Origin: Patescibacteria group bacterium
Lineage (GTDB): Bacteria; Patescibacteriota; Patescibacteriia; JAQUQO01
Length of the DNA stretch: 64,000 nt
Assembly (NCBI GenBank): GCA_028716045.1
Contig: JAQUQO010000001.1
Span: 64,942 to 128,941 of the forward strand
Direction: 5' to 3'
In this document: one piece after another, positions 2,925-54,983 of the stretch
Layout: every line of letters starts with the position of its first letter
Position numbering within the stretch: the first letter of the stretch is position 1
Notes under the pieces: model-generated
What the model saw: the letters and a program-made list of their open reading frames with translations, nothing else
Database searches by the model: none
What the model was told of the DNA's origin: nothing
Translations under genes and position numbers: made by a program

Positions 2925-4034
2925 TTATCTCGCCAAAATATAATTCATGCCGCCTAAATTTTTAACCTTGCCCTTCATCTCCATCAGCGTCAGGGCGCTG
3001 GCCGTTTCCGCGGCGTTCAGTTTAGTTTCTCGCACCAGCTCGTCAATATGTTTCGGTTCTTTGGAAAGATAAAGCAACAGTTTTTCTTCAGAGGGATTAT
3101 CAGCAAGAATTTTTTGGTTGGCGGTAAATATCTCCGAGTTTTCCAGATTTAATGTTTCTAAAATATCCTCGGCGGAAGTTACGGCCCGCGCCCCCATTTT
3201 TATTAAATTATTGGGTCCGATGGAGGTTTTACTGTAGATATTGCCCGGCACGGCAAAGACCTCGCGGTTTTGTTCCAGGGCACAGCGGGCGGTGATGAGC
3301 GCGCCGGATTCTTCGCCCGCTTCCACAATAAGCGTTCCCAGAGAAAGCCCGGCGATAATTCTGTTTCTCGCGGGGAAGTGGTGCTTCAGGGGCGGGGTGC
3401 CGATGGGGTGTTCAGAAATTATCGCTCCTCCCTCGGCAATGATTTTTTCCGCCAGACAGCGATTGGCCACCGGATAAACGCTGTTTTTATCAGCCCCGCT
3501 TCCGAGAACCGCCAAAGTTTTACCGCGGTTATTAAGGGCAGCAAGATGCGCCAAGGCATCAACACCCAAAGCCAGCCCGCTGATGACGGTAATTTTATTT
3601 TGCGCCAGCCGCGCGGCAATTTCCTCCGTCACCTGTCGGCCGTAAGGCGAAATTTTTCTCGTGCCGACAACGGCAATGGTAAAGTCGTTGTTGATATCGT
3701 GGAGCGAGCCGCGATAATACAACAAATACGGGGCGTTGTATATTTCCTTGAGCAGTTTGGGATATCCGGCATCTTTGATGGTGATAATTTTCAGGTTCTC
3801 TTCTTCTACTTTTTGCCATTCTCTATCCGGCTCTATCTCTTGGCGTTTAATGATGAATTCTTCGGCAATGTTTTCTTCCAGCCCCGCTTTTTTTAGTTCC
3901 GAAAAAGAAGCCCGCCACGCACCGGCTATGTCGGGGAAATAATTTAATAATTTATTAAATCGGACCGGACCGATTTTGGGGAATTGAGTAAGAGCTACCC
4001 AATAAGAAAGTTCATTTGCCATTTTCTTTAACAA
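2925..4034 (-). CDS. dprA: DNA processing protein DprA/Smf
   Basis: GTRKISPYGRQVTEEIAARLAQNKITVISGLALGVDALAHLAAL...AVLGSGAD is a Rossmann-like DprA core. It is followed by a C-terminal winged-helix-like tail. Confidence 0.9.
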   Translation of the reverse strand: MLKKMANELSYWVALTQFPKIGPVRFNKLLNYFPDIAGAWRASFSELKKAGLEENIAEEFIIKRQEIEPDREWQKVEEENLKIITIKDAGYPKLLKEIYNAPYLLYYRGSLHDINNDFTIAVVGTRKISPYGRQVTEEIAARLAQNKITVISGLALGVDALAHLAALNNRGKTLAVLGSGADKNSVYPVANRCLAEKIIAEGGAIISEHPIGTPPLKHHFPARNRIIAGLSLGTLIVEAGEESGALITARCALEQNREVFAVPGNIYSKTSIGPNNLIKMGARAVTSAEDILETLNLENSEIFTANQKILADNPSEEKLLLYLSKEPKHIDELVRETKLNAAETASALTLMEMKGKVKNLGGMNYILAR

Positions 4035-4103: not shown

Positions 4104-4211
4104 ATGTTAGAATTTGAGACATGGAAAATTGCTGTTGTCGTCGCAGGAGCGGTGGCTTTTGTGGCGATATGGTGGGGGCTGAAAAAAATAGCTAAAAGAA
4201 AGCTCTTTTGA
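4104..4211 (+). CDS. 35-aa small hydrophobic protein (hypothetical)
   Basis: GAGGAGG RBS at 4091-4098 precedes ATG 4104. The product MLEFETWKIAVVVAGAVAFVAIWWGLKKIAKRKLF is a single TM helix, and a rho-independent terminator follows. Not in the ORF track (too short). Confidence 0.3.
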   Translation: MLEFETWKIAVVVAGAVAFVAIWWGLKKIAKRKLF

Positions 4212-4249
4212 AAAAGAAAAAGCGGGCCGGCCAAGTTGAAAAAAAGGAT

Positions 4250-4284
4250 GTTCCCGTTCCAAATTTTAGGAACGGGATTTTTTT
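4250..4284 (+). terminator. Rho-independent terminator
   Basis: TCCCGTTCC (4252-4260) and GGAACGGGA (4269-4277) form a 9-bp stem with an 8-nt loop. Seven T residues follow at 4278-4284. Confidence 0.55.
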
Positions 4285-4288
4285 ATCC

Positions 4289-4343
4289 TTGACACGTCGG
4301 TCGCGACAGACGTGTCTTGACAGAAAACGGTAATTATTATATC
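4289..4343 (+). promoter_or_regulatory. Putative promoter with overlapping palindromic operator upstream of the FHA-domain gene
   Basis: There are two TTGACA hexamers (4289-4294, 4317-4322). They bracket a perfect 8-bp inverted repeat GACACGTC-N10-GACGTGTC (4291-4316) whose centre is the palindrome GTCGCGAC. An AT-rich TATTAT/TATATC -10-like stretch lies at 4335-4343. Confidence 0.3.
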
Positions 4344-4413
4344 ATTTTCTAATTAGTTGTTTGAAAATAAAGTGTTTTTTTGTTGTTAACCTATAATTTA
4401 GGAGGAAAAAGAA

Positions 4414-6183
4414 ATGAGCGACGAAAAGAAGAATGGGAATGGGGACACGGATGGTAAAGAGGGCGAAACTCCAAAGAAGCCAGGTACAAGTTCAATGCGG
4501 CTCGGCGAATTGCTGGTGCGGGAAAATCTTATTTCAGCGCAGCAATTGCAAAGGGCGATTGAGGCCCAGCGGGTTGAGGGTGGAAGGTTAAATTTCCACC
4601 TTACCAAGTTGGGGCTGATTGATGAAAAGCAGTTAACCGGGTTTCTTGCTAAGCAGTATCGTATTCCGGCGGTTGATTTGCGGAAGATTGAAATCTCTCC
4701 CGAAATCATTAAGCTCATCCCTAAAGAGCTCGCCGAGAAGCATATGGTTATCGCCATAACACGCAACGAGCAGACGTTAATGCTCGCGATGAGCGACCCG
4801 TCAAACATCTTTGCCATTGACGACGTCAAGTTTATCACCGACTACAATATTGAAGCGGTGGTGGCGTCGGAAGAGGCGATTCTGGAGGCAATTGATAAGT
4901 ATTATGGGAAAGGTGAAGAAAAAGAAAAATTTTTGGGACCGCCCGTATTTGAAAAGCCGGGCCCCGAGGATATAGCAAGGGTAAACGAGGAAATGGCCAA
5001 TGACGCACCGGTGGTAAAACTGGTTAACTTGATTCTTCTTGACGCCATTAAGAAGGCAGCAACGGAGATTTATCTTGCTTACGCAAAAGCTGGCGGTTTT
5101 TCCGTAGAGTATTGTATTAACGGCGAGAAAAACCAGGCGATGATTCCGCCCCAAAAGTTACAGCCGGCTATTTTCGCCCGTCTGAAAATAATGGCCGGAC
5201 TGGATATTAGTAAGGTCGGGATTCTCCAAATAGGCACAATAGAGTTAAAGTTTAACGATGATGCCGACGCTTTCGTATTTTACCTTTGTGTTTTGCCCGA
5301 TGGAGGAGAAAGGAAAGAAGAAATTACCATCTTTTTGCGAGGTAAAAAAACGGGAACCGCTGCGATAGAGAGAAACTTTTGTAGGCAGTTTAGGAAACCC
5401 ACTGGCATACCCAACAAAGAAAATAAAGAGCCGCTGAAGTATGTTTTGCGGTTTATCGCCGGCAAATACAAGGGCGGCAGTTTTCCGCTCGAAGCGGATA
5501 AGGAGATTATACTCGGCCGTTCAGCTGACTGCGATGTAGCTCTTGTGGAGGATATGGTCAGTAAAAGACATGCTCGCATTACCTGTGGAAAAAACGAATT
5601 CTATATCCAAGATTTAGGCACCACCAATGGCACTTTTGTCAATGGAGAACGGGTACAAAAAAAGAAACTCGTTGTTGGCGATAGAATAACGATTGGGGCC
5701 AGTGTTTTAAAAATGACGGCGGGTGAAGCTGCGAGTCCTCCCGATTTCTCCGACATTAAGCCGGAAATGAATGAATTAATGGAAAAGTTTAAGCCGCAGG
5801 AAGTATCGGGAAAACAGAAAGTAGCGGAGAAAAAGAAAAGGGAGCAAAGCAAAAAACCGCCGAAATATATTCTTACCGTTACAGCTGGTCCATATCAGGG
5901 GGGAGAACGCCCGCTTGACCTCAAGGAGGGAGAAGCTCTAATAATCGGCCATTCAAGCGAAATGGATATAGCGCTTCCGAGAGACGATGAGGTTAGTCAG
6001 AAACACGCTCGCATCACTCGCGAAAACGGGAAATACTATATTGCCGATCTTTACTCCGAAAGCGGTACTTATGTGAATAAAAAGCGGCTGAATCCGGTTG
6101 AGAAAAAGGCAATCGGCCCCGGCGATATTATCAAAATCGGGACTAACGAATTTCGGCTGGATAAGGGAAAAAAGAAAAAGTAG
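4414..6183 (+). CDS. PilB/GspE N-terminal (MshEN-like + N2) domain protein fused to two FHA domains; no ATPase core
   Basis: Residues about 28-165 match the T2SS-E N-terminal domain (RLGELLVRENLISAQQLQRAIEAQ ... LGLIDEKQLTGFLAKQY ... MSDPSNIFAIDDVKF). Residues about 190-275 match the PilB N2 domain (DAPVVKLVNLILLDAIKKAATEIY...IFARLKIMAGLDIS). No Walker A/B is present. Two FHA-like segments follow (GRSADCDVALVEDMVSKRHARI...TNGTFVNGERV and GHSSEMDIALPRDDEVSQKHARI...SGTYVNKKRL). Confidence 0.75.
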   Translation: MSDEKKNGNGDTDGKEGETPKKPGTSSMRLGELLVRENLISAQQLQRAIEAQRVEGGRLNFHLTKLGLIDEKQLTGFLAKQYRIPAVDLRKIEISPEIIKLIPKELAEKHMVIAITRNEQTLMLAMSDPSNIFAIDDVKFITDYNIEAVVASEEAILEAIDKYYGKGEEKEKFLGPPVFEKPGPEDIARVNEEMANDAPVVKLVNLILLDAIKKAATEIYLAYAKAGGFSVEYCINGEKNQAMIPPQKLQPAIFARLKIMAGLDISKVGILQIGTIELKFNDDADAFVFYLCVLPDGGERKEEITIFLRGKKTGTAAIERNFCRQFRKPTGIPNKENKEPLKYVLRFIAGKYKGGSFPLEADKEIILGRSADCDVALVEDMVSKRHARITCGKNEFYIQDLGTTNGTFVNGERVQKKKLVVGDRITIGASVLKMTAGEAASPPDFSDIKPEMNELMEKFKPQEVSGKQKVAEKKKREQSKKPPKYILTVTAGPYQGGERPLDLKEGEALIIGHSSEMDIALPRDDEVSQKHARITRENGKYYIADLYSESGTYVNKKRLNPVEKKAIGPGDIIKIGTNEFRLDKGKKKK

Positions 6184-6207: not shown

Positions 6208-6242
6208 AATCCCTTCCGATAAATATCGGAGAGGGATTTTTT
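6208..6242. terminator. Bidirectional terminator between convergent FHA gene and pth
   Basis: AAATCCCTTCCGAT and ATCGGAGAGGGATTT form an imperfect long stem with loop AAAT. T-rich tracts follow on the + strand and A-rich tracts on the other strand. Confidence 0.45.
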
Positions 6243-6253
6243 ATTTTTATGCT

Positions 6254-6793
6254 TTAATTATATTTATTCATCGCTCTTTCGGCGCTTTCAGTAAGGATTG
6301 TCAGCAGCGCCTCTTTGGCGGTTTTGATTACGTTCTTTAATTTTTTTTCTTCGCTCGGCGAGAATCGCTGCAGGACAAATTTTTCGGCGGGAATTTTAGC
6401 TCTTTGGTTGTTGGCTGTACCAAGGCGCACTCGCGTAAAATCAGGGGACTTTATTTTTTTCAGCACTGATTCCAAGCCTTTATGCCCGCCGGAAGAACCC
6501 GATTTTTTAATGCGCATTGTGCCGAAGGGCAGGTCAAGGTCATCATAAACCACGATGATATTTTCCGGCTTTATTTTATAAAATTGTTTAGTTGTTGCCA
6601 CTGCTTCCCCCGACAAATTCATAAAAGTTTGCGGTTTTAGATAAATTGTATTTTTTTCTTTGGCAATCTCCCCTTTGAGTTTTTTATTTTCTTTCCAATC
6701 CAAATCCAGGGCATCTAAAACGCGCCAGCCGATATTGTGTCTGGTTTTTTCGTATTCTTTGCCCGGGTTGCCGAGGCCGACAATTAATTTCAT
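6254..6793 (-). CDS. pth: Peptidyl-tRNA hydrolase
   Basis: MKLIVGLGNPGKEYEKTRHNIGWRVLD is the canonical Pth N-terminus. The 179-aa length fits. Confidence 0.92.
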   Translation of the reverse strand: MKLIVGLGNPGKEYEKTRHNIGWRVLDALDLDWKENKKLKGEIAKEKNTIYLKPQTFMNLSGEAVATTKQFYKIKPENIIVVYDDLDLPFGTMRIKKSGSSGGHKGLESVLKKIKSPDFTRVRLGTANNQRAKIPAEKFVLQRFSPSEEKKLKNVIKTAKEALLTILTESAERAMNKYN

Positions 6794-12259: not shown

Positions 12260-12290
12260 GACCCGTCAGTCGCGACTGACGGGTCTTTTT
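12260..12290 (+). terminator. Rho-independent terminator after hisS
   Basis: GACCCGTCAG / CTGACGGGTC is a perfect 10-bp stem with loop TCGCGA. TTTTT follows. Confidence 0.6.
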
Positions 12291-13089: not shown

Positions 13090-14844
13090 ATGCTTGTCAA
13101 AAAAAAGTTATTTTTAGAGATAACTGTCCTAACGGTATTTTTTGTCGTGACGGTTATTTTTTTATTTCCCTATTTTGTCCAAGCGCAAGTTGACACAGGA
13201 CTGGGTTATTTAGAAAGTTCCGGTTTGGCAGTTACCGATATCAGAATAACCATCGCGCGGATTATCCGTATCGCTCTCGGGCTTTTAGGGGCGATCGCCA
13301 CGGTGATAATTTTATATGGCGGATTTCTTTGGATGACCGCCGCCGGCAATGAGGAAAAAATGGAGACCGCCAAAAAAATTTTAAAGAACGGGGCTATTGG
13401 ACTGGCGATAATTATTACTTCTTTTTCCATCGCCAGTTTTGTTTTAAATTCACTTCTTAGGGCCACGGGCGTTACGGTCGGGGGCGGGGAGACGCCGGCA
13501 ACGGGCGCGGGCGGCGGGGGTTTGGGGTTTGGCATTATCCAAAGCCATTATCCGGCCCGCAATGCCAAAGAGATACCTCGCAACACAAAAGTTGTCGTTA
13601 CTTTCAAAGAATCAATCAAGGCAGATACTCTTATTAAAGACGGGGCTGATGAAGGCGAAATCCCTGGAGATTCACTTTCTGATCGTCTGATTACCACCAG
13701 CGTGCGTATTATTAAAAAAGGCGACTCCTTTCAAACGGGACCGTTTGTAGAGGCCTCGGCCATGGCAACAAGCGATAATAAAACTTTTGTTTTTAAGCCC
13801 TTGGATCTTTTGGGCAGTTCCTCTGTTTCTACTGATTATATCGTTCTTCTTTCTAATGACATCAAGAAAGCGGATGGCAAAAATGCTTTTAGCGGCGCCG
13901 ACCGGTGTGAAAATAATTCGGGGGTATATTGTTGGGGGTTTACCGTGAGCACTTTTGTTGATATCACCCCACCCCAAGTGGTAAATGTTTTTCCGGCAAA
14001 CGATTCCGAGGGCAAAAATCCGGTAGCGCGGAACGCCGTAGCGCAGATAAATTTTTCCGAACCAATTGACCCTTTGTCCGCCGCTGGCGTCTTTCCTCCC
14101 TTTGAGAATATTAGCGTAAAGGAAAATGGGGTGGCAAAAGAGGGTGGATATAATATAGGCAATGAGTACCAAGCAGTGGAATTTATTCCCAATGTTCTTT
14201 GCGGGCAGAATTCCTGCGGGCAAGATGTTTTTTGTCTGCCGCCCAACGCTCAATTAACAGCTTTGGCCAAATCAATTGACCCGGAAAAAGTGAGTTTCCC
14301 GTACGGGGGAGTGGTTGATATGTGTGACAACCCCTTGGATGGCGACGGCGACGGGGCGGTTGATAAAAAAGAAGGAGATAATTATCCGGATAATTATTCC
14401 TGGTCTTTTGCTACCAGCGATGAGGTTGATTTAACCTCGCCAGCCGTAGAAAAAATAATTCATCAAAATAAAGATAATACCGGAGAATTCATCTCTCCGC
14501 CGGATGGCGTGAGCGATATTTTGGATAATATTAATAAAACAGAACCCATAGAAATATATTTCAGTAAAGCGATGATGGTTAGTTTAATAAATAATTCTAA
14601 CGTGGTCATCGAGCCGCAGGACGCTAAGTGGTATGGCTGGTTTTACCCGATTTCTAAAAATGAAAGCGTGGAAGTTGATGGCCGAACGTTAAGGAAAACG
14701 CGGACCAGCTTAAAACACGATATCTTTTTTGAATCCAGCGGTTATTGGCCGAGTATTTCTTCACAGCTTAAAGATGTTTACCAAAATTGTCTTTGGGACT
14801 CGGCGAACAAGAAGGTCCCCGGTCCGGAGATAGTGACGCCGTAA
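13090..14844 (+). CDS. Membrane-anchored extracellular protein with N-terminal VirB2/TrbC-type pilin-like two-helix domain and Ig-like region
   Basis: After a signal/TM comes GLGYLESSGL...IRIALGLLGAIATVIILYGGFLWMTAAGNEEKMETAKKILKNGAIGLAIIITSFSIASFVL (helix-loop-helix, res about 36-122), then a Gly linker and beta-rich domains. The N-domain is paralogous to that of the next gene. Confidence 0.65.
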   Translation: MLVKKKLFLEITVLTVFFVVTVIFLFPYFVQAQVDTGLGYLESSGLAVTDIRITIARIIRIALGLLGAIATVIILYGGFLWMTAAGNEEKMETAKKILKNGAIGLAIIITSFSIASFVLNSLLRATGVTVGGGETPATGAGGGGLGFGIIQSHYPARNAKEIPRNTKVVVTFKESIKADTLIKDGADEGEIPGDSLSDRLITTSVRIIKKGDSFQTGPFVEASAMATSDNKTFVFKPLDLLGSSSVSTDYIVLLSNDIKKADGKNAFSGADRCENNSGVYCWGFTVSTFVDITPPQVVNVFPANDSEGKNPVARNAVAQINFSEPIDPLSAAGVFPPFENISVKENGVAKEGGYNIGNEYQAVEFIPNVLCGQNSCGQDVFCLPPNAQLTALAKSIDPEKVSFPYGGVVDMCDNPLDGDGDGAVDKKEGDNYPDNYSWSFATSDEVDLTSPAVEKIIHQNKDNTGEFISPPDGVSDILDNINKTEPIEIYFSKAMMVSLINNSNVVIEPQDAKWYGWFYPISKNESVEVDGRTLRKTRTSLKHDIFFESSGYWPSISSQLKDVYQNCLWDSANKKVPGPEIVTP

Positions 14845-14871
14845 TTTTTATTTTACAATTTTTAATTTTCA

Positions 14872-17800
14872 ATGAAATCGCGAAAGCTAACAATTAAAAT
14901 TTTATTGGCCGCAAGTTTATTGCTGGCAATTTTCTTTTTAGGGAAACCCGTTTTGGCCCAAGTGGACGCTGGTTTGGGTTATTTGGAACAGTCGGGGCTG
15001 GGGACGGCTGATATCAGGGTGACTATTGCCAATATCATCCGCATAATTTTGGGATTTTTAGGCACTCTGGCGGTAGTGATTGTTTTAATTGGAGGTTTCA
15101 AATGGATGACCGCCGCCGGCAATGAGGAAAAGCTGGCCGGGGCTAAGAAGTTGCTTCTTAACGGAGCTATTGGTTTAGTTATTGTGCTATTTTCTTTTGG
15201 TATTGCCAGTTTCGTAATTTCCAGATTGATGCAGGCGACTGGCGGGGGAGGAGGCGGCGTTGTCGGTGGCGAAGTCCCCGGCGGCGGGGTTTTTTATCCC
15301 AACAATTTAGTAGTGAAAAGTATTACTCCGCAGGGGCCGGTGCCCATTCGCAATGTTAAGGTCAGAGTAATCTTTAACAAAGAAATAAAACCGGAGAGTG
15401 TGACGGGGAAAATAGAAGTAAGGAGGGCGAATGATGATTCTGAAGCAGCCGGCAATTTTGATATTGGCTCCCGGTCGGTGGAATTTTCGCCGTCAGCGGC
15501 TTGCCCCGAGCCTAATCAAAATTTAAAATGTTTTGATTCCAATACTGAATATCGGGTTGAGATTAAAGAAGGGGTCAAAAGTGCTGATGATAAAGATTTA
15601 AAATGCGGCGGCGCTTATCCTAAGTGCAATGGATTTTTTACCACTGGCGATTTAGTTGATGTCACTCCGCCCACGGGGGTAATCACCAACCCCGATGACG
15701 GAGGAAGCTTTAGTGTGGACGATTCAGTTCTGCTTCAGGCGGCAACCAAAGATGACAGCGGTATCGGCCTCGTGGAATTTTATGTTGACGGCCGTTTGAT
15801 TGATAGCGACGGGCCGGAGGGGCCGACGGCGTCAACTTATCTTGCCGAAGGATATTGGGAAACGGCGGGCGTGGAGCTTCTGTCCAGACATGAAATTTAT
15901 GCTCAGGTTTTTGATATTAACGACCACAAAACAAATACGGATAAAATTTACGCTCTCGCCCGGGCCAAACACTGTTTTAACGGGATTAAAGATGAAAAAG
16001 AAGAGGGCGTGGATTGCGGCGGAGAGCGCGAGGCCAAAGATTATTGCGGCGCCTGCGCCGGTGGTGATTGCGACCGCGCGGACAAAGACGCCGGGACCTG
16101 TGCCGCGCCAGACAATACTTTTTGCGCTTCGGGATATTGTGAATCAACAACCTGTAAATGTCAGATTCACCTGAAAATATCTAATATCTACTCCGGAGAT
16201 AAAAATGATTTTGCCGGCCTGAACCCCAATGGTTCGCCGGGCAATTATTTAACTATTAAAGGAGAAGGTTTCGGGCGTTCCTTGGGGCAAGTGATTTTTT
16301 TAGGCAGCGACCTTTCTTCGGACGATAAAATAGCCGCGCTCGCGTCTTGCAGTTCTGCTTGGCAAGATAAGCAGGTAGTAGTGGAAATTCCGGCCGGCGT
16401 GGTCGATGGATCAATTAAATTAATTACTGGCAATAAAGCCGAGGACAGCACGGATGACGCCTATGGGCCGATTATCAATGATTTCCAGTTAAATGACAGT
16501 AAACGTCCTGGCATCTGCGAAGTTTCTCCGCGCGAAGGAGTGGAGGGCGGCGATTTGAATATCAGCGGCAAAGGATTCGGCGACCAAGCAGGCGCTTTAT
16601 ATTTCGGCTCGGAAATTTTGAAAAAAATAAACAGCTGGCAAGACGGTAAGATTTCCTCGGTCATTCCCAATTTTAATTTAGGGGATTACTTAGTTTTAAT
16701 AAAAGCCGGAGAAGAATTTAGCAACGGCGTCAATTTTTCTTTAATTGAGGGCAAAAGTGTCGGGCCGCATGTTGATTATCTAAATCCGGAAAAAGGGAGA
16801 AAGGGCCAATATGTTACCATTGTCGGTTCGCGTTTTGGCAGTGGCCAAGGAACAGTCAATTTTATCAACCGGGCCAAAGGCAATGCTATTTTAGCCAGTA
16901 CTGATTTTCCGGCAGCTTGCCAGAGCAGCTGGTGGCGCGATAATTACGTGATTGTCCGCGTTCCGGAGATTGGTGATGGAACTTACGACCTAGTTTTAAC
17001 CACCGCCAAAAATCGCGACAGCAATCCCGTTCCCTTTGAAGTGACTGGCGATCCTTTAACGCCCGGCATTTGTAATTTGAATCCTGATAATGGGCTAGTG
17101 AATACCAAGGTTAATATCAGCGGCGGGGGATTTGCTTCATTAGGCAGTGAGAGCCGAATTGATTTCTGGCAAAATAAAAAAGCCGAAGCGGTTTCCTGGA
17201 GTGATGACAAGATATTTACCACCGTCCCCCCGGATACCCAGACCGGTCCGGTGTTTGTGACAAGCAATGAAAAAAAAGACGGGGCTAACCTCGTAAGCAA
17301 TCGTATTCCTTTTCGAGTAGGCGCGTGCGAAAAAGATTCTTGCTTGGAGGGGGAAACTTGTTGCGGCGACGGTATTTGCCGCGGAACTTGTTTTGATGAA
17401 ATCAGTAAAGCCAAATATCGCTGGTATTTTAATACCGGAGAATTGCCGAAAATTCCTCAAGTGGTGGAAGAGTGCGCGGCTAATTCCGCGCCCAGTCCTG
17501 TGCCCTTTTCCAAATTTGGCAATACCGACGTTTGTCTTAATGTGATTCCCTCGGCTCGTTTCAGCGTGCCGATGCAATACGAAACTTTAATTAAAGAAAA
17601 TATTCTTTTTGAGGAATGCGCCACCGGAGCGGAGGGGAAGATGATTTGTATTCCGGTGGAGGATTATTCCATAGCGATTTCCAGTTCTAAGGATTCCGAA
17701 TCAGGAAAAGACAGATTTGAGATTTACCCTGGCGGCAAAGGTTCGGGCGTTAATTTAAAATCTAATACTTCTTACAGGGTGGTTCTAACCACGGCTTTAC

Positions 17801-20800
17801 GCGGAGCGGACACGGAGGGAAAGACCGGCGCCAATATGATTGCCAATGTGGAAGAATGCGGTCAGGGCAATGCTTATTGTTGGGGATTTAAAACCGGCGA
17901 CAAGCTTTGCGATATCGGGGATATCAATGTTCTCCCGTCACCTAACACCCTAAGAAGCGCCGACGCGCAGAGCGATTATGAGGTTGTGGTTCGTGCTAAG
18001 GATAATTCTTGCTGGGGAATAAATCCGTTCGCTTACGACTGGTGGTGGATAATTGCCGACCCGTCTAAGGCCGATGTCACTAACGCAGAGTTGGATGGTA
18101 AGGGTCTGCCGGAGCAGATAGTCACGGCTAAAAATGAAACCCTGCCGGACAGACCTACGCAAGTTATGGCCGATACTGAAGACAAACTCGGCGACGGGGA
18201 GTTGCACATCAATTACGCTTTTCCGGCGGTCATTAATCATTCGCCCGCGTGCCAAAACGGAATTTGCTCCAACGCGGAGATTTCCGCCACTTTCAATGTC
18301 CAATTGGAAAATTATGAAGACAATATTCTGCTTTATAAATGCGCTGAAGAGAGCTGTAAATATTTAAGCGAAATTCCGGTGGCTTATACGTCGGAAAAAA
18401 TCGCCAAGACGGGCGGGGAGGAAGTAAATGAAAAAATTACGCTGACCATTCTCGGTGAAAATGAGTTTTTAGAGAAAGATACCTGGTATCGCGTGCAAGT
18501 TAAGGGCGGGGATAACGGCGTCAAATCAAAGGGCGGCGAGCGCAGTTTAATCGGCGGAAATGATGGCGCTGATTATTCTTGGAAGTTTCAAACGCGCGAT
18601 AACGATAAAATTTGCGACGTGGAACAAGTTGAAGTGTTTCCGAGAAAAACCACTTTATATTACATCGGGCAGAGAAAAGAATTGACGAGTTCCGTGTCGG
18701 GTCCGGAAGACGCTTGCGGCAATGGGCAAAGTTTAGCGGTCAGAACAAATAACCCCGACACCGGCGCCAGCTTGGATAATTATAATTGGCAATGGGAAAG
18801 TAGCGTGCCGAATTTAGTGACTCTCACGGGCAGCGCTCTCGGCAGAGTGGCGCCATGGGACGGTGAATTAATTGATGCTAATCCCATAATTGGCGGGGCG
18901 TGTTCTTCAAAATGCCTGCGCGTTGGTTCTAAAACCGGCGGAGCGATTTGCGGCAATGGGGTTTGGGAAAAAGGCGAAGATTGCGATGGCGGAGGGGGGT
19001 GTTCGGCAAAATGTCTTAGCGCCGGTTCAGTCAGTCCGGCGGTTTGCGGCGACGGCTATATCGGCGCTCCCGATAAAAAATACGAATATAAAAATTATCT
19101 GACTGACCTAAGAGCCGGGAGGTTACCCGCTGATTTTAAATCTTTCGGCGAGGAGTGCGACGATGGCAAACATTGCGCCAATGGGGCTTATTGCAGTAGC
19201 GACACTGAATGCGAGTTGGTAATGAGGGGGTTCTGCGGCACGCCCGCCAATTTTGAGTTATGCAAAGATAATAATTGGGCCACTTTTGATAAAGACGGCA
19301 AAAAATTAGAATCCATATTGGATAAAAAATGTCAGCCTCGTTCCAGTGATAGTTGCAGTGGGCAGTGTCTAAATGAAGGAGCGGCTTTTGAATTGGGTAC
19401 CTGCGGCAATGGGCAAATCGGCGGAGGAGAAGATTGTGACGATGGCAATCGCCAGCCGGGCGACGGTTGCAGCGCGGCTTGTCTTAATGAAGGGTCAGCG
19501 GCAGGGGCGGCGGTTTGCCAAAATGCGATAGTCGAAAGCAAGTGGGAAGATTGCGACGAGGGCGCTGGAAATAATCCCGCCGCCGGTTGCAGTAATAGCT
19601 GTTTAAACGAAGGGTCAAGGGTTACTCCTTGCGCTTATTTTTTTGATAAAATTGTTTGCGGCCGGCAAGGATATTGTCAGTGGGACGAGATGAGTGAAGA
19701 TGACCCCAGCGATGACCTTTGCGTTTATAATAATGTTTGTGAAAGTAAAACCGAAATTAAGTGCCTTGGCCTTGAGGCTTGTCGTTGGGTAGATAACGAA
19801 TGTCATAAGGCCATCTGCGGAGATGGCGCGGTAGATATCAGCGAGGATTGCGATGATGGCAATTTAAGAGCTGGCGACGGTTGTAGCGCAAAGTGCGTTA
19901 AAGAGGGGGCATCTTTAACTTATACCAATGCTTCGGTCTGCGGCGATGGAGAAATCAAGACGGGTGAAGAATGCGATTCCGGCAGTGGCGACGGCAAGAA
20001 AGACCCGTATCAGGCGGTGACGGCCATTGATTCTACTCCTACGTCGGCGATTATTAAGGCCAGCGTGAATAATGCGGCGGGGAAGAAAATTTCTTGCGAT
20101 GGTGAAGGATGCGCCGAAGTAGAAGTGGTTTGCGTTTGTAGCGATGATGATTATTGTGAAGGATATTCCGAGAATTTGGCCTGCAATCAGGTGAATCGCT
20201 GCTGTTATCCGCGGCCGACCATAGTCGCGGTAAAACCAGCTCACGATAACGACCCCGAAGAGCCAAATGCCTGTCCCAATGGAGTTTTAGAAGTAGAGTT
20301 TGACCAACAAATGGACTTGGCGAGCCTGGCTGAAAATATTAAATTATATCATTTACAATTAAATACTCCCTGCAATCAAGAAGCTTTGTCTTGGCATGAG
20401 AAACTTGGCAAGTGGGCGAAAAACATGTTTGCCAAAATAGGTCTGGCGGCCGTTCCGGAATACTGGTGTCCGGTGGCGGGAGCGGTGCGAACCGTCACTT
20501 TGGATAACGGGGGCAATAAAATAAATAAAGCGGAGTTTGTTCCTAACGATATTTTAGATGTTAATAATACTTATCGTCTGTTTGTAAAAATAGACAATGA
20601 GACCACTGCCGCCATTACCGAAGGCGTGCGCAGTTTGACTGGAGGGGTGGGGGTTAAAGAAGTAGACGCCGCGGGCGGCAACACACATTTTAAAATAGAT
20701 GAAAGCACCGGCAGAATGGAAGAAAGTTCCGGCAATTTTGACCGTTATTTCTTCGCGCATTTTGTCACCGGTATGGAGATTTGCCAGGTGGAGCAGGTTG

Positions 20801-23800
20801 TTTTTAAACGGCCGGCAGAGGGAGGTAAAGTAATTGACCCTTATATTTTTAGAAGAGCTGCTGACGAAGAAATTTTTGAAGTGGAGGCACAAACGGAGAA
20901 CGGTCAACCCTTGCGGCCCTTTCCCGAATATCATTGGTCATGGAGTTGGCAGCCAGGTGAGACCGGTTTAGTTAAAGTTTCCAGCCAAGACAAATATTGC
21001 AGCATCACCAAAAAGGATTGTTCTGATAAAGAAGTCGGCACTCAATGTTCTGTCGCGGACGGCATTTGTGTTTTAAGTGATATCCAAACGATAACGCCGG
21101 AAAATAACAGCGGAGATACGACACTCACGGTGACCGCCGAGATACTGAACGATGAATTAAATAAACCCGCGACTAAAGGAGAGAAAGTGGAAGGAGTTAT
21201 TGATATCAAGAATCGTATTTGCGAGAATTTGTGGTCATCAGCGCAGAACGATGAATATAAATGGCTGGAGGCCTCAACGTATCTTTTCGAATCAGACCTT
21301 TTAAAAATATCACCCATTTCTGGTAATTTTTCCACTTGGTATTGCCGCGATGCTGGTAATCCGGATAAAACCGAAGATGACTTACCGGATTTAAATATAA
21401 TTACAGTGGCCGAAGAAGGGACTGGTATCAGAGAATATTTGTTCAAAGACCCCTCCACTCCCGCCGCGGTTGGCTTTAGAATTTTACCCAATCTTAAACA
21501 TTTATCGCTTTTAAATTGGTATAAAGAGCAAGAAGGATTAAGCGGCAATCCGCAGACGATGGGGACCATTGACGGGTATTCAGCTCTTCGCGACGGCAAC
21601 ACTGTTTATATTAATTTTGCCAACAACAGTACCAAATGTTTTAACGCGGACTCTTGTTTTATTGACGCTATCTATACCAACGTGCTGGCGGTCTCCTTTA
21701 CTGAAACCGGCGGACAAAACATCCAAAATATCTTCAATCAGTTGGTTAAATATCTAAAATTTAATGAAAGTTTTTATCCGCATGGTCCCGGAAGCTCCAG
21801 CCGCTCCTTTTATTCCAATAATGCCATTGCCAATGCCGCCAAAGCTCAACTACTTCGCGATACGCGGCGCTGGGAGGATTTGACTGATATTGCCGCCACC
21901 TTGAATAATTACGCCGAGAATCATAGCGGCCAATATCCAAAAATTGAGGCCGGTTCTTTCCTCCCTGGTTTAACAATCAGCGCTTGGCCGTCTTGGAACA
22001 CGGTTTTGGGCAATAATTTAGGCATGGCTTTGCCCGAAGACCCTAAGAATGAATTTTCCGCTGACTGTTCGGAAGGAACTTTTCTTGATGAGCCGTTTAA
22101 TGCCGCCACTTGCTGGTCAAGCAAAGGAGCTTTCTATTGTCCCCAAAATTCTCATATCTATTGGTATAACCATCGCGCTGATGGGCAATATAATTTGGCG
22201 GGAGAATTTGAATTTAATGCTAACGAGGAAACAGCGGAGTATTTGTGGAGGTTAGACAGCGCAAAACAGAATTATCAGTTGTTAAGAAATATCTATATCA
22301 CCGTTTCTTCTGACGCGGCCGGAGGACCGTCCTGCAATTCCACACCCGCCAGTCCGATAAAGGGCGTTTGCGGTGACGGTTATATTGATTTAAATGAGGT
22401 TTGCGATGGTGCGGGTTATTTTGAAATCAAAGATAATAATAATTACCCTTGCCGCGCTTATTATACTTGTAAGTCGGATTGCTCGGCTAAAATATATAAG
22501 GATTCTTCCGGCAAGGAAGTGGAAATAAAAACATCGTCCGAGGAAACAAATTTAGCAGCGTCCATTTGCCAGTATGTTGGCAGGTGCGGCGACGGAATTG
22601 TCAGTGGTCCCGAAACCTGTGATGATGGTGTGGAACGCAATGGGCAGTATGGTCGTTGCCCGAAAAGTTGCCGGCAGTCTGATGCCGTTAAATGCGGTGA
22701 TTATAATATTGATAAACCATTTGAAGTTTGTGATAAGGGAGGCAAGACAGAATATGGCGGTACTAAGAGAGAAAATTCTTGTCGTTGGGATTGTTTGGCC
22801 TATGGCCCGTATTGCGGCGACAAAGTGGTGGAGGAAGAATATGGGGAAGTTTGTGAATTAGGGGAGATAGTGACTCCACAGGAAAATTGTCCAATAGTTG
22901 ATGGTTATCAGCAATTTAAAAAATATCAATGTAGTTCTGATTGCCAGAAATGGAACTTAGTTGCCGATTGTTCTTCTCTCGGACAGCAGTGCGGCAATAA
23001 AATAAAAGAAGGTACTGAAGAATGCGATGACGGTAAAAATACGGGAGATAAGGATCAAAACGGCATTCCCGATGGTAATGAAGACGCTTGTAATAATGAT
23101 TGTAAATTAACTGTTTGCGGGGACAGTAAAATTCAAAATCCCAATGGGCTGGGGCAGAAAGAAGAATGTGATTTGGGGGCGGGAGTCAATGGGGTGAGTT
23201 GTCGAGAAAAATTGCCTTATAGTGAAGGAATAAATGAAGCTCCGCAACAATGCACTTATTGCGATGCCAATTGCCGGAGCGTGCGCGTCCAGGGCCCATA
23301 TTGCGGTGACGGAATAATAGATGTCGGCCACGAAGAGTGCGACGGCAATAATAATCTGGAATATTGCGAGGACGGAATCAGGGTAAGAAAGCTGACTTGC
23401 AATAATTCCTGCGATTGGGATAAGGGCAAAGAGTGCGAATACGTCGGTGAAGGAGAAAGCTGCACAGTTGGCGGCGGAGACGAGCAGGTTTGCGATGCCG
23501 GAATGGGTTGTGTGAATGGCAAATGCCAGAAATGTTTTGATAATAATGGTCGGGTTAAACCGGAATGTCAAGCGGTCAGCGGTTTTATTAAACCCTTTGA
23601 TTATTGCACTAACAATTCTCAATGTTTGCAGGCCTATGATTTGAGTTGGAAATGCTCGTCCGCGCTTAAACTTTGCTTGCCGGAAACTATAATAACTGCC
23701 GGTCTTTATGGGAAGTCCTGCCCGGGCGGTTTAACCCAACATGGAGGTCTTTGCTATTATCGGGCTTCAAATAATCAAGTCACGGACGGCAAATGCCCGA

Positions 23801-25203
23801 CATTAAATATGGACTTGCTGTTAAACCGAGGAATAAAGCAATTGGAATTTGAAAAATTTAAAGGCCTAGCCAACAATCCAATAACTGGAAATTTTGTTTT
23901 ATGCGTTTTTGACGCTGAAAATTATAAGAAGAATATTTGTAGCAGTTCCGCTTGCGGTGGCGATTGCGGGCATGCGGATAATAGTTGGTCGGATTTTTGC
24001 CCGTCAGCTAGACCAAACAGCGACCAACCGAATGAACAATGTTCGGGTGGTTCCTGTAATCAACAGTCGGGGAGTATCTTGGGTAAATTTAGCTGTCGTT
24101 ATACAGATACTTGTGGCAATTCGTGTTTGCTGACGGGGTTTGGTTGTTGCAATGGTTCTGTCTATGATTTAGGGGTGGAAAAATGCGAAAATAATCAAAT
24201 ACTTTGTCAGGAAACAGGCAGTGGTCAGACAGACAATGTGCCACCGGAAGATAAAATGGATTCTTGCTATAATAAATGTTGCGATAACGATGAGTATTGC
24301 TCTTCTGCCACTCAATCTTGCGTGGAATGTGAGAAAGACAACCATTGCAGTGATAATGATAAAGATAAGTTTTGTGTTAATTATGAATGTGTGGAATGTC
24401 GGGAGAATGCTAATTGTATCGGCGGAAAAATTTGTTTAAATAATCAATGTGCCGACGCGCCACAGTGCCAGGTTGACAGTGATTGTAAGGTAATGGGGGC
24501 AAATGCAAAATGTGTTAATAAAAAATGTGGGTGCTCCTCCAGCTGTTCAGGCAAGCAGTGCGGTGATGACGGTTGTGGCGGGGATTGCGGAGAGTGTCGG
24601 GAGAGCTGGAGTTGTAGCGGTAATACGTCAGTACACAAAACATCGTCTTGTAAGAATAATCAATGTACAGAAGAGCGGATTGATTGTAGTAATAAGGGTG
24701 GATGCGATTCAGCGACTGGTAAATGTAAGGGTTGCACATCGGTGGAGCATACTTCCAAAAACGCCGTTAAATATACTAAATGTTTTGATGGTGACGCTTG
24801 GTGGGTGGATGGTTGCGGTCAAAAAGATGGTCTTTATGAAAATTGCAGTGATGTAGAGATTTGTGAGAAGAATGAGGCCGAGCCGGCGGGATGTGAGTGT
24901 AAATACGGAGATTGTACTTCAAATGTTTGTGTTCCTCGACCGGGCCTAGAACTTTGTGTGGAAGGAACATGTACTTATCTTCGCGAGTGTGTTTATGGTT
25001 GTTTTACGGAACCGCGGCAATGCGATAACGTTTGTTATGGCGGCGAATGCGTTGAGTGCAATCCGAAAGGCACCTCTTGCCATAATACGACGTCAACGGA
25101 CGGGGCTTGTAATGGAAGAATATGCGAGATTTTAGGATGTCAAAAACATTGGGTTTGTAATACTGCCGGTAAAAAAGTTTATGAGTGTGGTAGTTGTCCA
25201 TAA
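14872..25203 (+). CDS. Giant (3443 aa) secreted cysteine-rich adhesin-like protein with N-terminal pilin-like anchor, IPT/TIG repeats and Myxococcus-type Cys-rich repeats
   Basis: It is a single uninterrupted 10.3-kb ORF. The N-terminal domain is paralogous to 13090 (…LIGGFKWMTAAGNEEKLAGAKKLLLNGAIGL…). There are at least 4 IPT/TIG-like repeats (…GNYLTIKGEGFG…, PGICEVSPREGVEGGDLNISGKGFG…). Repeats of CG(D/N)G..x..E(E/D)CDDGN...GDGCS..C follow across about 18.9-20.2 kb. The C-terminal 900 aa are packed with CxxC/EGF- or follistatin-like cysteine knots. Confidence 0.8.
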   Translation: MKSRKLTIKILLAASLLLAIFFLGKPVLAQVDAGLGYLEQSGLGTADIRVTIANIIRIILGFLGTLAVVIVLIGGFKWMTAAGNEEKLAGAKKLLLNGAIGLVIVLFSFGIASFVISRLMQATGGGGGGVVGGEVPGGGVFYPNNLVVKSITPQGPVPIRNVKVRVIFNKEIKPESVTGKIEVRRANDDSEAAGNFDIGSRSVEFSPSAACPEPNQNLKCFDSNTEYRVEIKEGVKSADDKDLKCGGAYPKCNGFFTTGDLVDVTPPTGVITNPDDGGSFSVDDSVLLQAATKDDSGIGLVEFYVDGRLIDSDGPEGPTASTYLAEGYWETAGVELLSRHEIYAQVFDINDHKTNTDKIYALARAKHCFNGIKDEKEEGVDCGGEREAKDYCGACAGGDCDRADKDAGTCAAPDNTFCASGYCESTTCKCQIHLKISNIYSGDKNDFAGLNPNGSPGNYLTIKGEGFGRSLGQVIFLGSDLSSDDKIAALASCSSAWQDKQVVVEIPAGVVDGSIKLITGNKAEDSTDDAYGPIINDFQLNDSKRPGICEVSPREGVEGGDLNISGKGFGDQAGALYFGSEILKKINSWQDGKISSVIPNFNLGDYLVLIKAGEEFSNGVNFSLIEGKSVGPHVDYLNPEKGRKGQYVTIVGSRFGSGQGTVNFINRAKGNAILASTDFPAACQSSWWRDNYVIVRVPEIGDGTYDLVLTTAKNRDSNPVPFEVTGDPLTPGICNLNPDNGLVNTKVNISGGGFASLGSESRIDFWQNKKAEAVSWSDDKIFTTVPPDTQTGPVFVTSNEKKDGANLVSNRIPFRVGACEKDSCLEGETCCGDGICRGTCFDEISKAKYRWYFNTGELPKIPQVVEECAANSAPSPVPFSKFGNTDVCLNVIPSARFSVPMQYETLIKENILFEECATGAEGKMICIPVEDYSIAISSSKDSESGKDRFEIYPGGKGSGVNLKSNTSYRVVLTTALRGADTEGKTGANMIANVEECGQGNAYCWGFKTGDKLCDIGDINVLPSPNTLRSADAQSDYEVVVRAKDNSCWGINPFAYDWWWIIADPSKADVTNAELDGKGLPEQIVTAKNETLPDRPTQVMADTEDKLGDGELHINYAFPAVINHSPACQNGICSNAEISATFNVQLENYEDNILLYKCAEESCKYLSEIPVAYTSEKIAKTGGEEVNEKITLTILGENEFLEKDTWYRVQVKGGDNGVKSKGGERSLIGGNDGADYSWKFQTRDNDKICDVEQVEVFPRKTTLYYIGQRKELTSSVSGPEDACGNGQSLAVRTNNPDTGASLDNYNWQWESSVPNLVTLTGSALGRVAPWDGELIDANPIIGGACSSKCLRVGSKTGGAICGNGVWEKGEDCDGGGGCSAKCLSAGSVSPAVCGDGYIGAPDKKYEYKNYLTDLRAGRLPADFKSFGEECDDGKHCANGAYCSSDTECELVMRGFCGTPANFELCKDNNWATFDKDGKKLESILDKKCQPRSSDSCSGQCLNEGAAFELGTCGNGQIGGGEDCDDGNRQPGDGCSAACLNEGSAAGAAVCQNAIVESKWEDCDEGAGNNPAAGCSNSCLNEGSRVTPCAYFFDKIVCGRQGYCQWDEMSEDDPSDDLCVYNNVCESKTEIKCLGLEACRWVDNECHKAICGDGAVDISEDCDDGNLRAGDGCSAKCVKEGASLTYTNASVCGDGEIKTGEECDSGSGDGKKDPYQAVTAIDSTPTSAIIKASVNNAAGKKISCDGEGCAEVEVVCVCSDDDYCEGYSENLACNQVNRCCYPRPTIVAVKPAHDNDPEEPNACPNGVLEVEFDQQMDLASLAENIKLYHLQLNTPCNQEALSWHEKLGKWAKNMFAKIGLAAVPEYWCPVAGAVRTVTLDNGGNKINKAEFVPNDILDVNNTYRLFVKIDNETTAAITEGVRSLTGGVGVKEVDAAGGNTHFKIDESTGRMEESSGNFDRYFFAHFVTGMEICQVEQVVFKRPAEGGKVIDPYIFRRAADEEIFEVEAQTENGQPLRPFPEYHWSWSWQPGETGLVKVSSQDKYCSITKKDCSDKEVGTQCSVADGICVLSDIQTITPENNSGDTTLTVTAEILNDELNKPATKGEKVEGVIDIKNRICENLWSSAQNDEYKWLEASTYLFESDLLKISPISGNFSTWYCRDAGNPDKTEDDLPDLNIITVAEEGTGIREYLFKDPSTPAAVGFRILPNLKHLSLLNWYKEQEGLSGNPQTMGTIDGYSALRDGNTVYINFANNSTKCFNADSCFIDAIYTNVLAVSFTETGGQNIQNIFNQLVKYLKFNESFYPHGPGSSSRSFYSNNAIANAAKAQLLRDTRRWEDLTDIAATLNNYAENHSGQYPKIEAGSFLPGLTISAWPSWNTVLGNNLGMALPEDPKNEFSADCSEGTFLDEPFNAATCWSSKGAFYCPQNSHIYWYNHRADGQYNLAGEFEFNANEETAEYLWRLDSAKQNYQLLRNIYITVSSDAAGGPSCNSTPASPIKGVCGDGYIDLNEVCDGAGYFEIKDNNNYPCRAYYTCKSDCSAKIYKDSSGKEVEIKTSSEETNLAASICQYVGRCGDGIVSGPETCDDGVERNGQYGRCPKSCRQSDAVKCGDYNIDKPFEVCDKGGKTEYGGTKRENSCRWDCLAYGPYCGDKVVEEEYGEVCELGEIVTPQENCPIVDGYQQFKKYQCSSDCQKWNLVADCSSLGQQCGNKIKEGTEECDDGKNTGDKDQNGIPDGNEDACNNDCKLTVCGDSKIQNPNGLGQKEECDLGAGVNGVSCREKLPYSEGINEAPQQCTYCDANCRSVRVQGPYCGDGIIDVGHEECDGNNNLEYCEDGIRVRKLTCNNSCDWDKGKECEYVGEGESCTVGGGDEQVCDAGMGCVNGKCQKCFDNNGRVKPECQAVSGFIKPFDYCTNNSQCLQAYDLSWKCSSALKLCLPETIITAGLYGKSCPGGLTQHGGLCYYRASNNQVTDGKCPTLNMDLLLNRGIKQLEFEKFKGLANNPITGNFVLCVFDAENYKKNICSSSACGGDCGHADNSWSDFCPSARPNSDQPNEQCSGGSCNQQSGSILGKFSCRYTDTCGNSCLLTGFGCCNGSVYDLGVEKCENNQILCQETGSGQTDNVPPEDKMDSCYNKCCDNDEYCSSATQSCVECEKDNHCSDNDKDKFCVNYECVECRENANCIGGKICLNNQCADAPQCQVDSDCKVMGANAKCVNKKCGCSSSCSGKQCGDDGCGGDCGECRESWSCSGNTSVHKTSSCKNNQCTEERIDCSNKGGCDSATGKCKGCTSVEHTSKNAVKYTKCFDGDAWWVDGCGQKDGLYENCSDVEICEKNEAEPAGCECKYGDCTSNVCVPRPGLELCVEGTCTYLRECVYGCFTEPRQCDNVCYGGECVECNPKGTSCHNTTSTDGACNGRICEILGCQKHWVCNTAGKKVYECGSCP

Positions 25204-25906: not shown

Positions 25907-25944
25907 AAATATAACATACAATTTATTATTTAATTTTAATTCTT

Positions 25945-48661: not shown

Positions 48662-48665
48662 ATTT

Positions 48666-51321: not shown

Positions 51322-51329
51322 TTTTTAAT

Positions 51330-51767: not shown

Positions 51768-51807
51768 TTATCAAAATTTTGGATTCCAAATATAAAATAA
51801 AACTGCC

Positions 51808-52482: not shown

Positions 52483-52504
52483 GTGCTTAATATAAAATTT
52501 TAAT

Positions 52505-54974: not shown

Positions 54975-54983
54975 TTTGGAAAT

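Follow-up and report, generated by a model that had tools for sequence, protein, structure and literature searches.

The locus described here raises the question of what the regulatory head of a pilus extension ATPase could do once it has been parted from its motor and joined to forkhead-associated (FHA) domains. We analysed a stretch of 64,000 nucleotides (the window; positions 64,942 to 128,941 of contig JAQUQO010000001.1, assembly GCA_028716045.1) from a Patescibacteria bacterium of the candidate phyla radiation (CPR). The gene at 4414-6183 on its plus strand is an intact open reading frame (ORF) of 589 amino acids (aa), labelled in GenBank merely as 'FHA domain-containing protein'. Its product joins the N1 (MshEN) and N2 domains of PilB to two FHA domains and is not a member of the PilB/GspE extension ATPase family. 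This architecture is so far unique, a variation on two known kinds, signalling proteins with an MshEN domain and pilus motor modules linked to FHA. In Patescibacteria, host attachment and DNA uptake centre on type IV pili, and we know of nothing reported on pilus regulation in these minimal cells. We tentatively propose, somewhat short of calling it probable, that this is a functional, lineage-specific CPR gene made of Myxococcota-type parts, whose product, resembling a PilB without the ATPase, may serve as an adaptor or decoy through which Ser/Thr phosphorylation is coupled to the type IV pilus machinery; its partners and the direction of regulation are what we infer from the domains.

The original prediction, made from the DNA letters, had described a PilB N-terminus (MshEN plus N2) followed by a linker and two FHA domains in place of the ATPase. 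Pfam, NCBIfam, a PDB search and AlphaFold/Foldseek all bear this out, and the profile scans that it called for recovered the N2 portion of T2SSE, the MshEN domain and both FHA domains. The parts of the protein are as follows (pLDDT, predicted local distance difference test).

4414-4494, plus strand: N-terminal extension, aa 1-27, disordered and Lys/Gly/Asp-rich (pLDDT <50 at aa 9-23)
4498-4656, plus strand: MshEN_N four-helix module, aa 29-81, RLGELLVRENLISAQQLQRAIEAQ - RVEGG - RLNFHLTKLGLIDEKQLTGFLAKQ (NF053729, 53 bits)
4657-4917, plus strand: MshEN_C (GSPII/T2SSE_N), aa 82-168 (PF05157, E 1e-21; pLDDT about 95)
4918-4992, plus strand: linker between N1 and N2, aa 169-193, disordered (pLDDT <50 at aa 168-191)
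4993-5349, plus strand: PilB-type N2 domain, aa 194-312 (T2SSE profile positions 2-90; AlphaFold model; Foldseek)
5350-5433, plus strand: linker in place of the ATPase C-terminal domain, aa 313-340 (pLDDT <50 at aa 311-329)
5434-5727, plus strand: FHA1, aa 341-438 (Pfam FHA at aa 366-428)
5728-5859, plus strand: low-complexity linker rich in Lys, Glu and Pro, aa 439-482 (translation; no Pfam domain)
5860-6159, plus strand: FHA2, aa 483-582 (PDB FHA matches at aa 483-578; FHA1 against FHA2, E 1e-24)
6160-6183, plus strand: C-terminal tail DKGKKKK, aa 583-589, then the stop codon (translation)

The MshEN/N1 region as a whole spans aa 29-168, and its MshEN_N module carries both 24-residue cyclic di-GMP (c-di-GMP) motifs, scoring 53 bits against a cutoff of 38 in the c-di-GMP_motif model NF053729. 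The Pfam T2SSE match (aa 194-283) is confined to profile positions 2-90 of 370 and thus marks an N2 domain, with the ATPase core absent. Similarly, the NCBIfam PilB model TIGR02538 is matched at positions 2-263 of 564 (166 bits against a cutoff of 676), the best PDB sequence match is to residues 2-263 of Myxococcus xanthus PilB (E 4e-70), and alignment with full-length PilBs collapses after about aa 312. Of the features that define PilB/GspE-type ATPases (TIGR02538, PF00437), the N1 domain is present, and the C-terminal ATPase with its Walker A/B motifs, Asp and His boxes and Zn-binding Cys motif is absent. The strongest Pfam signal in the protein comes from FHA (PF00498), in two stretches (E 2e-40). 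The AlphaFold model covers aa 1-329, with pLDDT values of about 95 in N1 and of 82-88 over most of N2, falling to 65-69 thereafter, and with disordered linkers; the predicted order of N2 is helix, three strands, helix, three strands. By Foldseek, the N1 model matches the MshE-c-di-GMP structure 5htl with a TM score of 0.76, and the N2 model matches the N2 domain (N2D) of Geobacter metallireducens PilB with a root-mean-square deviation of 1.6-2.2 Å over 111-117 residues.

Where do these parts come from? Full-length PilBs of Myxococcota and 'Deltaproteobacteria' share 53-59% identity with the N-terminal half. One 597-aa PilB, P0001, leads the other matches by a large margin for N1; its gene adjoins that of PilT, on a contig typical of large genomes, in the Myxococcota metagenome-assembled genome (MAG) GCA_054682455.1. 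It shares 82% identity with our protein over N1, 94% over MshEN_N and 75-76% over MshEN_C, and the string KPGTSSM that ends our N-terminal extension recurs in it in the alignment. Synonymous sites are nevertheless saturated against P0001 (proportion of synonymous differences, pS, 0.90), so the transfer was not recent. Recent horizontal transfer was ruled out on this ground and because GC content is barely above background (46% for the gene against 43%; 54% at third codon positions in the N-terminal half). When genome contigs were scanned with the N1 alignment, the matches listed were PilBs of Myxococcota, Bdellovibrionota and 'Deltaproteobacteria' alone, at no more than 66% identity, and no Patescibacteria were among them. 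P0001 itself occurs on one NCBI contig alone, and nothing was found that would point to co-occurrence of the donor lineage and this CPR organism.

The second half points the same way. FHA1 has its best match (64%) in P0278, an FHA-PATAN protein of the same MAG (L004/L006, contigs 17 and 18), by a marginal lead. Proteins of this FHA-PATAN (DUF4388) family have about 310 aa and are common in Myxococcota; a full-text literature search for DUF4388 together with FHA returned no paper, and the family appears uncharacterised. At two loci (L007 and L008) an FHA-PATAN protein adjoins a second FHA protein of 590 aa. The affinity of both halves to one Myxococcota lineage makes for a concrete case of modules captured across phyla by an ultra-small symbiont, and could help to identify a host.

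A second CPR lineage supplies the evidence that part of the protein is selected. P0133, which turned up in two sequencing runs, is a 241-aa protein consisting of MshEN and an unrelated tail of about 80 aa, encoded on a related CPR contig of lower GC content (L010). Along that contig the genes run TopA, a 256-aa gene, DprA, a small membrane peptide, P0133, Pth, Der and LytR; P0133 thus holds the syntenic position between dprA and pth and is an ortholog with N1 alone. Flanking orthologs of the two loci are 64-73% identical, N1 69% and MshEN_C 75-76%. For N1, the proportion of nonsynonymous differences (pN) is 0.18 and pS is 0.80; corresponding values for DprA are 0.17 and 0.76, and Der is alike. 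Since N1 matches the flanking DprA in these values, the comparison indicates that N1 is old, vertically inherited and under purifying selection since the two CPR lineages split. No N2 or FHA remnant was found at the L010 locus by tblastn; a 6-residue match there (TIELKF against TVEVKF, E 6.7) was treated as noise. The original prediction had allowed that the protein might prove to be a truncated PilB pseudogene. With the ORF intact and N1 under purifying selection, this possibility is not supported.

The motif pair of MshEN_N had also been likened to the pair that binds c-di-GMP. Of the 12 contact residues, ten are unchanged (R29, L30, G31, L45, Q52, R58, L59, L74, L78 and Q81), and I49 conservatively replaces a motif Leu, so that 11 of 12 are kept or conservatively replaced. 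The suggestion of 'one Gly replaced by Asn' was right as to the kind of change and understated its number, for there are two such positions. N38 stands where motif I would have its turn Gly, a position that is Asn in 99 of 103 close PilB relatives, and the clade with this Asn includes M. xanthus PilB. In motif II, the RLG triplet has N60 for its Gly; this position is equivalent to Gly40 of MshE and is Gly in 102 of the 103 relatives. In Vibrio cholerae MshE, the guanine is recognised through the main chain at Gly11 and Gly40; the ligand fails to stabilise the G40I and G11L variants, and with G11I both binding and function are lost (PMC5013675). Our protein fits neither of the published MshEN patterns, strict or relaxed. 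Motif I of M. xanthus PilB, to which ours is identical over 15 residues, fails these patterns too, and that protein nonetheless binds c-di-GMP (Dye et al. 2023, as cited in PMC11656802).

Because N60 stands at the equivalent of Gly40, mutation of which in MshE abolishes the ligand effect, c-di-GMP binding by our protein is doubtful. Furthermore, P0133 has GIG for RLG in motif I, SIE for RLG in motif II and a 4-residue insertion; the Arg of each motif and the Gly of motif II are gone. Since these motifs are eroded while the N1 around them is conserved, c-di-GMP binding does not appear to be the property that selection maintains in this N1 family. The likeness to a c-di-GMP motif pair holds at the level of the profile score and falters at the residues; the loss of key MshEN positions, which had been named beforehand as speaking against the idea, is found in the ortholog and in part in our protein. 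The case is a cautionary one, in that an MshEN motif can exceed profile thresholds and yet lack a residue essential for c-di-GMP binding in MshE.

Conservation is uneven along the PilB-like half. Conserved PilB columns are kept in 30 of 33 cases in MshEN_N, 36 of 50 in MshEN_C and 47 of 87 in N2. The 40 altered columns of N2 are concentrated in invariant His, Arg, Asp and Glu residues, the replacements including H220Y, R230S, R232E, R234C, D236N, E267K, R268V, R269G, P271L, D273I and R275T. The polar motifs DIH(V/I)EP, RxRxRxDG and ERRLPQDGR are thus not retained, and the fold is present. Over N2, our protein is 52% identical to P0001; PilBs among themselves are about 81% identical here. Judging by the model, N2 has kept its fold and hydrophobic core and lost the conserved charged surface that is normally paired with the ATPase domain. 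In PilB, the N2 of each protomer sits on the C-terminal ATPase domain of the adjacent one; N1 presumably contacts the PilM stator, as the GspE-GspL complex would suggest, and is where cofactors such as PilZ bind (PMC11656802). The MshEN_C subdomain is the part inferred, in GspE/PilB, to dock on GspL or PilM, and on PilZ.

The two FHA domains differ, one having its canonical residues complete and the other not. FHA1 has all the canonical residues (G368, R369, S383, H386, N405, G406 and T407). FHA2 retains a fold-level match and keeps S528 and H531; however, His513 stands for the phosphate-binding Arg (Arg in 136 of 142 family members) and Ser550 for the conserved Asn (Asn in 135 of 142). The two domains are 41% identical to each other (E 1e-24), which marks FHA2 as a tandem copy of FHA1 that has diverged. 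By its residues FHA2 is probably not a classical phosphothreonine binder, and the earlier description of two phospho-Thr-binding domains therefore suits FHA1 and probably not FHA2. FHA1 is 54-64% and FHA2 37-46% identical to the N-terminal FHA of Myxococcota FHA-PATAN (DUF4388, PF14332) proteins, and the family signature (I/L)(S/A)GKYxGGxFPL is present in the target FHA. This FHA subfamily is otherwise fused to PATAN; Pfam finds no PF14332 match in our protein, and one in P0278 (E 6e-17). PATAN binds PilB1 and PilC in Synechocystis (bioRxiv 10.1101/2021.06.11.447907). The FhaB/FipA model NF049868 gives 147 bits against a cutoff of 125, and exceeds it for the sole reason that the scores of two FHA copies add up.

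No other protein combining MshEN/N2 with FHA was found, either when 5.8 billion proteins were searched through a word index, using the whole sequence as well as its C-terminal half, or in an exhaustive phmmer search of 1.84 billion representatives, for which Pfam was run on ten multi-stretch or FHA-region matches within the best 150. Pattern scans for the architecture gave nothing in genome contigs and did not recover it in metagenome contigs, where there was one weak FHA match. The top representative match by phmmer, P0128 (297 aa), has two tandem complete MshEN domains and no ATPase, and is another ATPase-less PilB-N1 architecture.

How might such a protein work? The gene would have arisen when the first third of a pilB gene, coding for the N-terminal extension, N1/MshEN and N2, was joined to a tandemly duplicated FHA domain of the FHA-PATAN kind. 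The resulting ATPase-less look-alike of PilB may act at the cytoplasmic base of a type IV or competence pilus. N1 would be its conserved business end, docking on the PilM/PilC platform or on an N1-binding cofactor as the N1 of PilB does, and N2 could be a scaffold, or could cap a PilB subunit without supporting catalysis. FHA1 would bind a phosphothreonine protein, so that Ser/Thr phosphorylation could recruit, retain or release the decoy and thereby tune pilus assembly; FHA2 would probably be a phospho-independent interaction or structural module. In this scheme c-di-GMP may be at best a weakened input, not the conserved one. Decoy, competitor or recruitment adaptor would each be a fitting name for such a protein.

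The gene has its own putative expression signals, which are listed here together with a palindrome upstream.

4291-4316, strand not assigned: 26-nt palindrome with 13-nt arms, GACACGTCGGTCG and CGACAGACGTGTC, 12/13 pairs (92% complementary), abutting the -35 hexamer
4317-4345, plus strand: sigma-70-like promoter TTGACA-17 nt-TATCAT, 11/12 matches, by consensus match alone
4400-4405, plus strand: Shine-Dalgarno sequence AGGAGG, 8 nt 5' of the ATG, read from the sequence
6214-6231, plus strand: weak terminator-like hairpin 3' of the stop codon, 7 pairs, 3 of them G-C, then a T-rich tail

On one side lies the divergent dprA and on the other the convergent pth (6254-6793, minus strand), which runs towards the terminator-like hairpin; the gene is monocistronic. 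Housekeeping or envelope genes surround it (dprA, pth, der and LytR-CpsA-Psr). Two MAGs, on contigs of 812 kb (GCA_028711565.1) and 928 kb, and two independent Logan assemblies all encode an identical protein; since four assemblies agree on it, a misassembly or chimera was ruled out. A role in anti-phage defence was rejected, as PADLOC models gave no family at E ≤ 0.01 for the protein. A literature search on the accessions JAQTRY, GCA_028711565 and BAAHET and on the sequencing run (SRR) returned no matches. Between dprA and the gene lies a tiny ORF (4105-4212, plus strand) for a 35-aa single-helix membrane peptide, MLEFETWKIAVVVAGAVAFVAIWWGLKKIAKRKLF, with its own terminator at 4252-4277; a 24-aa peptide of like kind, MGTYIIIGVGIVVLGAMLWYGIKK, is found at the equivalent position of the related CPR contig (L010, about 3795-3869).

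An operator-like palindrome in the promoter had been predicted as well. The palindrome at 4291-4316, GACACGTCGGTCGCGACAGACGTGTC, is real and abuts the -35 hexamer. Its core, CGTCnGTCGCGACnGACG, has one other copy in the window, at 12260-12285, where 0.01 copies would be expected by chance. This copy is followed by a T-run (TTTTT) and therefore acts as the terminator hairpin of hisS. Because a near-identical palindrome is a terminator hairpin, the operator role is unproven; the element at 4291-4316 could be an operator or a hairpin element, the former being possible but unsupported, and the two palindromes may represent a repeated hairpin element or a shared binding site.

The rest of the window is typical of CPR genomes, with pilins of the type IV secretion system (T4SS) kind, VirB4/TraG-like ATPases, giant surface proteins and LytR-CpsA-Psr. 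Two adjacent genes at 13090-25203 (plus strand) encode proteins of 584 and 3443 aa, each with an N-terminal T4SS_pilin domain (PF18895) followed by Ig-like domains (Big_5, TIG, Big_7, DUF4215), the larger being a giant pilin-anchored surface protein. Behind them, at 25217-26649 (plus strand), stand two tandem paralogs of about 230 aa with TSP3_bac (bacterial thrombospondin type-3) calcium-binding repeats, and a second giant protein (2635 aa, with CBM_4_9) is encoded at 37935-45842. A conjugation-like type IV secretion cluster of CPR-typical kind occupies 45911-55730 (plus strand) and 62906-63991 (minus strand). It includes a VirB4/TraG P-loop ATPase (52505-54361), a ComF-like phosphoribosyltransferase (54984-55730), a T4SS_pilin-SLT lytic transglycosylase and several proteins without a Pfam match, and L009 annotates PrgI-like and TraC-like genes there.

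The readable genome region comprises the window and about 10 kb on each side, about 85 kb in all. The sole nucleotide second-messenger enzyme within it is a RelA/SpoT-family (p)ppGpp synthetase/hydrolase (HD_4, RelA_SpoT and TGS domains; L001, 3269-4705), about 5 kb upstream of the window beside parAB and topA.

The idea of an adaptor for a pilus or secretion machine, which the original prediction had raised, seems to us the most reasonable reading, as judged from the domains alone. In its support we count the strong conservation of N1 while N2 is not conserved, the ortholog that keeps N1 alone, the canonical residues of FHA1, the binding of PilB1 and PilC by the PATAN partner of this FHA subfamily, and the gene's own promoter-like site and strong ribosome-binding site. 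Several points weigh against it. Being monocistronic, the gene offers no operon partner to argue from, and the readable region holds no type IV pilus gene, full-length PilB, PilM or PilC, no Ser/Thr (Hanks) kinase or PP2C phosphatase, and no c-di-GMP enzyme (GGDEF, EAL or HD-GYP). N1 derives from a distant phylum, and its compatibility with CPR pilus proteins is assumed. The ortholog has neither N2 nor FHA, so conserved selection is demonstrable for N1 alone, and N2 and the FHA domains could be lineage-specific baggage. As far as known, the family is carried by two organisms alone.

It is unlikely, in our judgement, that the protein is a general FHA scaffold unrelated to pili, serving phospho-signalling in the cell envelope or division as actinobacterial FhaA or FhaB/FipA do, with N1-N2 as an interaction or oligomerisation module. 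The lead of FHA among the Pfam signals, the above-cutoff NF049868 score (through the summing of two copies) and the housekeeping and envelope neighbours with no pilus genes nearby would suit such a scaffold; against this, the part conserved across two CPR lineages is N1, P0133 is without any FHA, every known role of N1/GSPII lies in ATPases of type II secretion or type IV pili or in c-di-GMP, and elsewhere this FHA subfamily occurs together with PATAN, a binder of PilB. Quite unlikely is a sensor-adaptor whose primary input is c-di-GMP at the MshEN pair, gating FHA interactions with a pilus or secretion machine. Here the NF053729 score, the 10 identical contacts with conservative I49, the 94% identity of MshEN_N to a genuine PilB, the 15-residue identity of motif I to the M. 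xanthus PilB that binds the ligand (Dye et al. 2023, as cited in PMC11656802) and the known fusion of MshEN to many signalling domains (PMC5013675) meet the Asn at the Gly40 equivalent with the corresponding MshE defects, the GIG/SIE motifs and insertion of P0133 despite its conserved N1, and the lack of GGDEF, EAL and HD-GYP genes in the readable region.

We consider it very unlikely that the gene is a decaying remnant of a horizontally acquired pilB, truncated differently in two CPR lineages and of little or no function. The missing ATPase and lost catalytic-face residues of N2, the reduction of P0133 to N1 and an unrelated 80-aa tail, the eroding c-di-GMP motifs and a unique architecture that suits an accident would all be expected of a remnant; an intact 589-aa ORF with a strong ribosome-binding site, an N1 with pN of 0.18 at saturated synonymous sites, equal to DprA and Der, complete FHA1 residues and a retained N2 fold and hydrophobic core would not. 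Highly improbable, finally, is mimicry of a host, in which the protein would imitate the PilB N-terminus and the FHA protein of a Myxococcota-like host and act on the host's pilus or phospho-signalling, perhaps via the type IV secretion-like system of the window. Both halves do best match one Myxococcota MAG (P0001 and P0278 of GCA_054682455.1), MshEN_N is 94% identical to P0001 despite saturated synonymous sites, the window encodes T4SS pilins and VirB4/TraG-like ATPases, and the C-terminal tail is Lys-rich; however, there is no demonstrable secretion signal, P0133 has a different C-terminus and eroded motifs, and neither co-occurrence evidence (P0001 being on a single NCBI contig) nor a paper naming the accessions was found. 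To host-to-symbiont gene flow we give the same low probability as to mimicry: an episymbiotic CPR bacterium would have captured the PilB regulatory head and one FHA module of its Myxococcota-like host, and the chimera would be a mimic that, during attachment, titrates the pilus platform and phospho-signalling of the host or of the bacterium itself. If true, relatives of GCA_054682455.1 would be a candidate host lineage for an uncultured Patescibacteria clade.

As a pilus adaptor or decoy, the protein would be the first hint of Ser/Thr phosphorylation feeding into CPR pilus control. A natural ATPase-less PilB would also be a tool for finding what N1 and N2, domains that are little understood, bind when uncoupled from catalysis.

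Compared with known systems, our protein is homologous over N1/MshEN and N2 (263 profile positions) to PilB (TIGR02538), MshE and GspE (3JC8, 5TSG/5TSH, 5HTL); unlike them, it is without the C-terminal ATPase, has its N2 charged residues replaced and has gained two FHA domains. In common with the non-ATPase MshEN proteins, it uses MshEN as a portable signalling module. The partners reported for that module are REC, HD-GYP, CheA, CheX, cyclases, Ser/Thr kinases and glycosyltransferases such as NfrB (PMC5013675). FHA is not reported as a partner there, and the lone 'FHA' string in the supplement of that paper falls inside a protein sequence. In contrast to the MshEN proteins of Wang et al. 2016 (PMC5013675), ours keeps the PilB N2 and has Asn at the Gly40 equivalent. 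With the T6SS (type VI secretion) proteins Fha1/TagH and the T3SS (type III secretion) proteins YscD/SctD (TIGR03354, TIGR02500, NF041660), as with GarA, OdhI and archaeal ArnA (PDB entries), the likeness is at the FHA level alone; these matches are below family cutoffs, and no other domains or context are in common. In the Myxococcota FHA-PATAN proteins (P0278), the same type of FHA is tethered to a PilB-related module, as in our protein, which differs from them in lacking PATAN and in having its FHA duplicated and placed C-terminal to the PilB fragment. FHA domains fused to pilus-family ATPases have been described in CpaF class III (PMC12019362) and in KilF of M. xanthus (PMC8460266). Unlike our protein, these belong to the Tad branch, keep an active ATPase with one N-terminal FHA and have no MshEN. 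Yet they too join FHA through a disordered region to a motor module, of the PilT/VirB11 family, and thus provide a precedent for phosphothreonine control of pilus motors.

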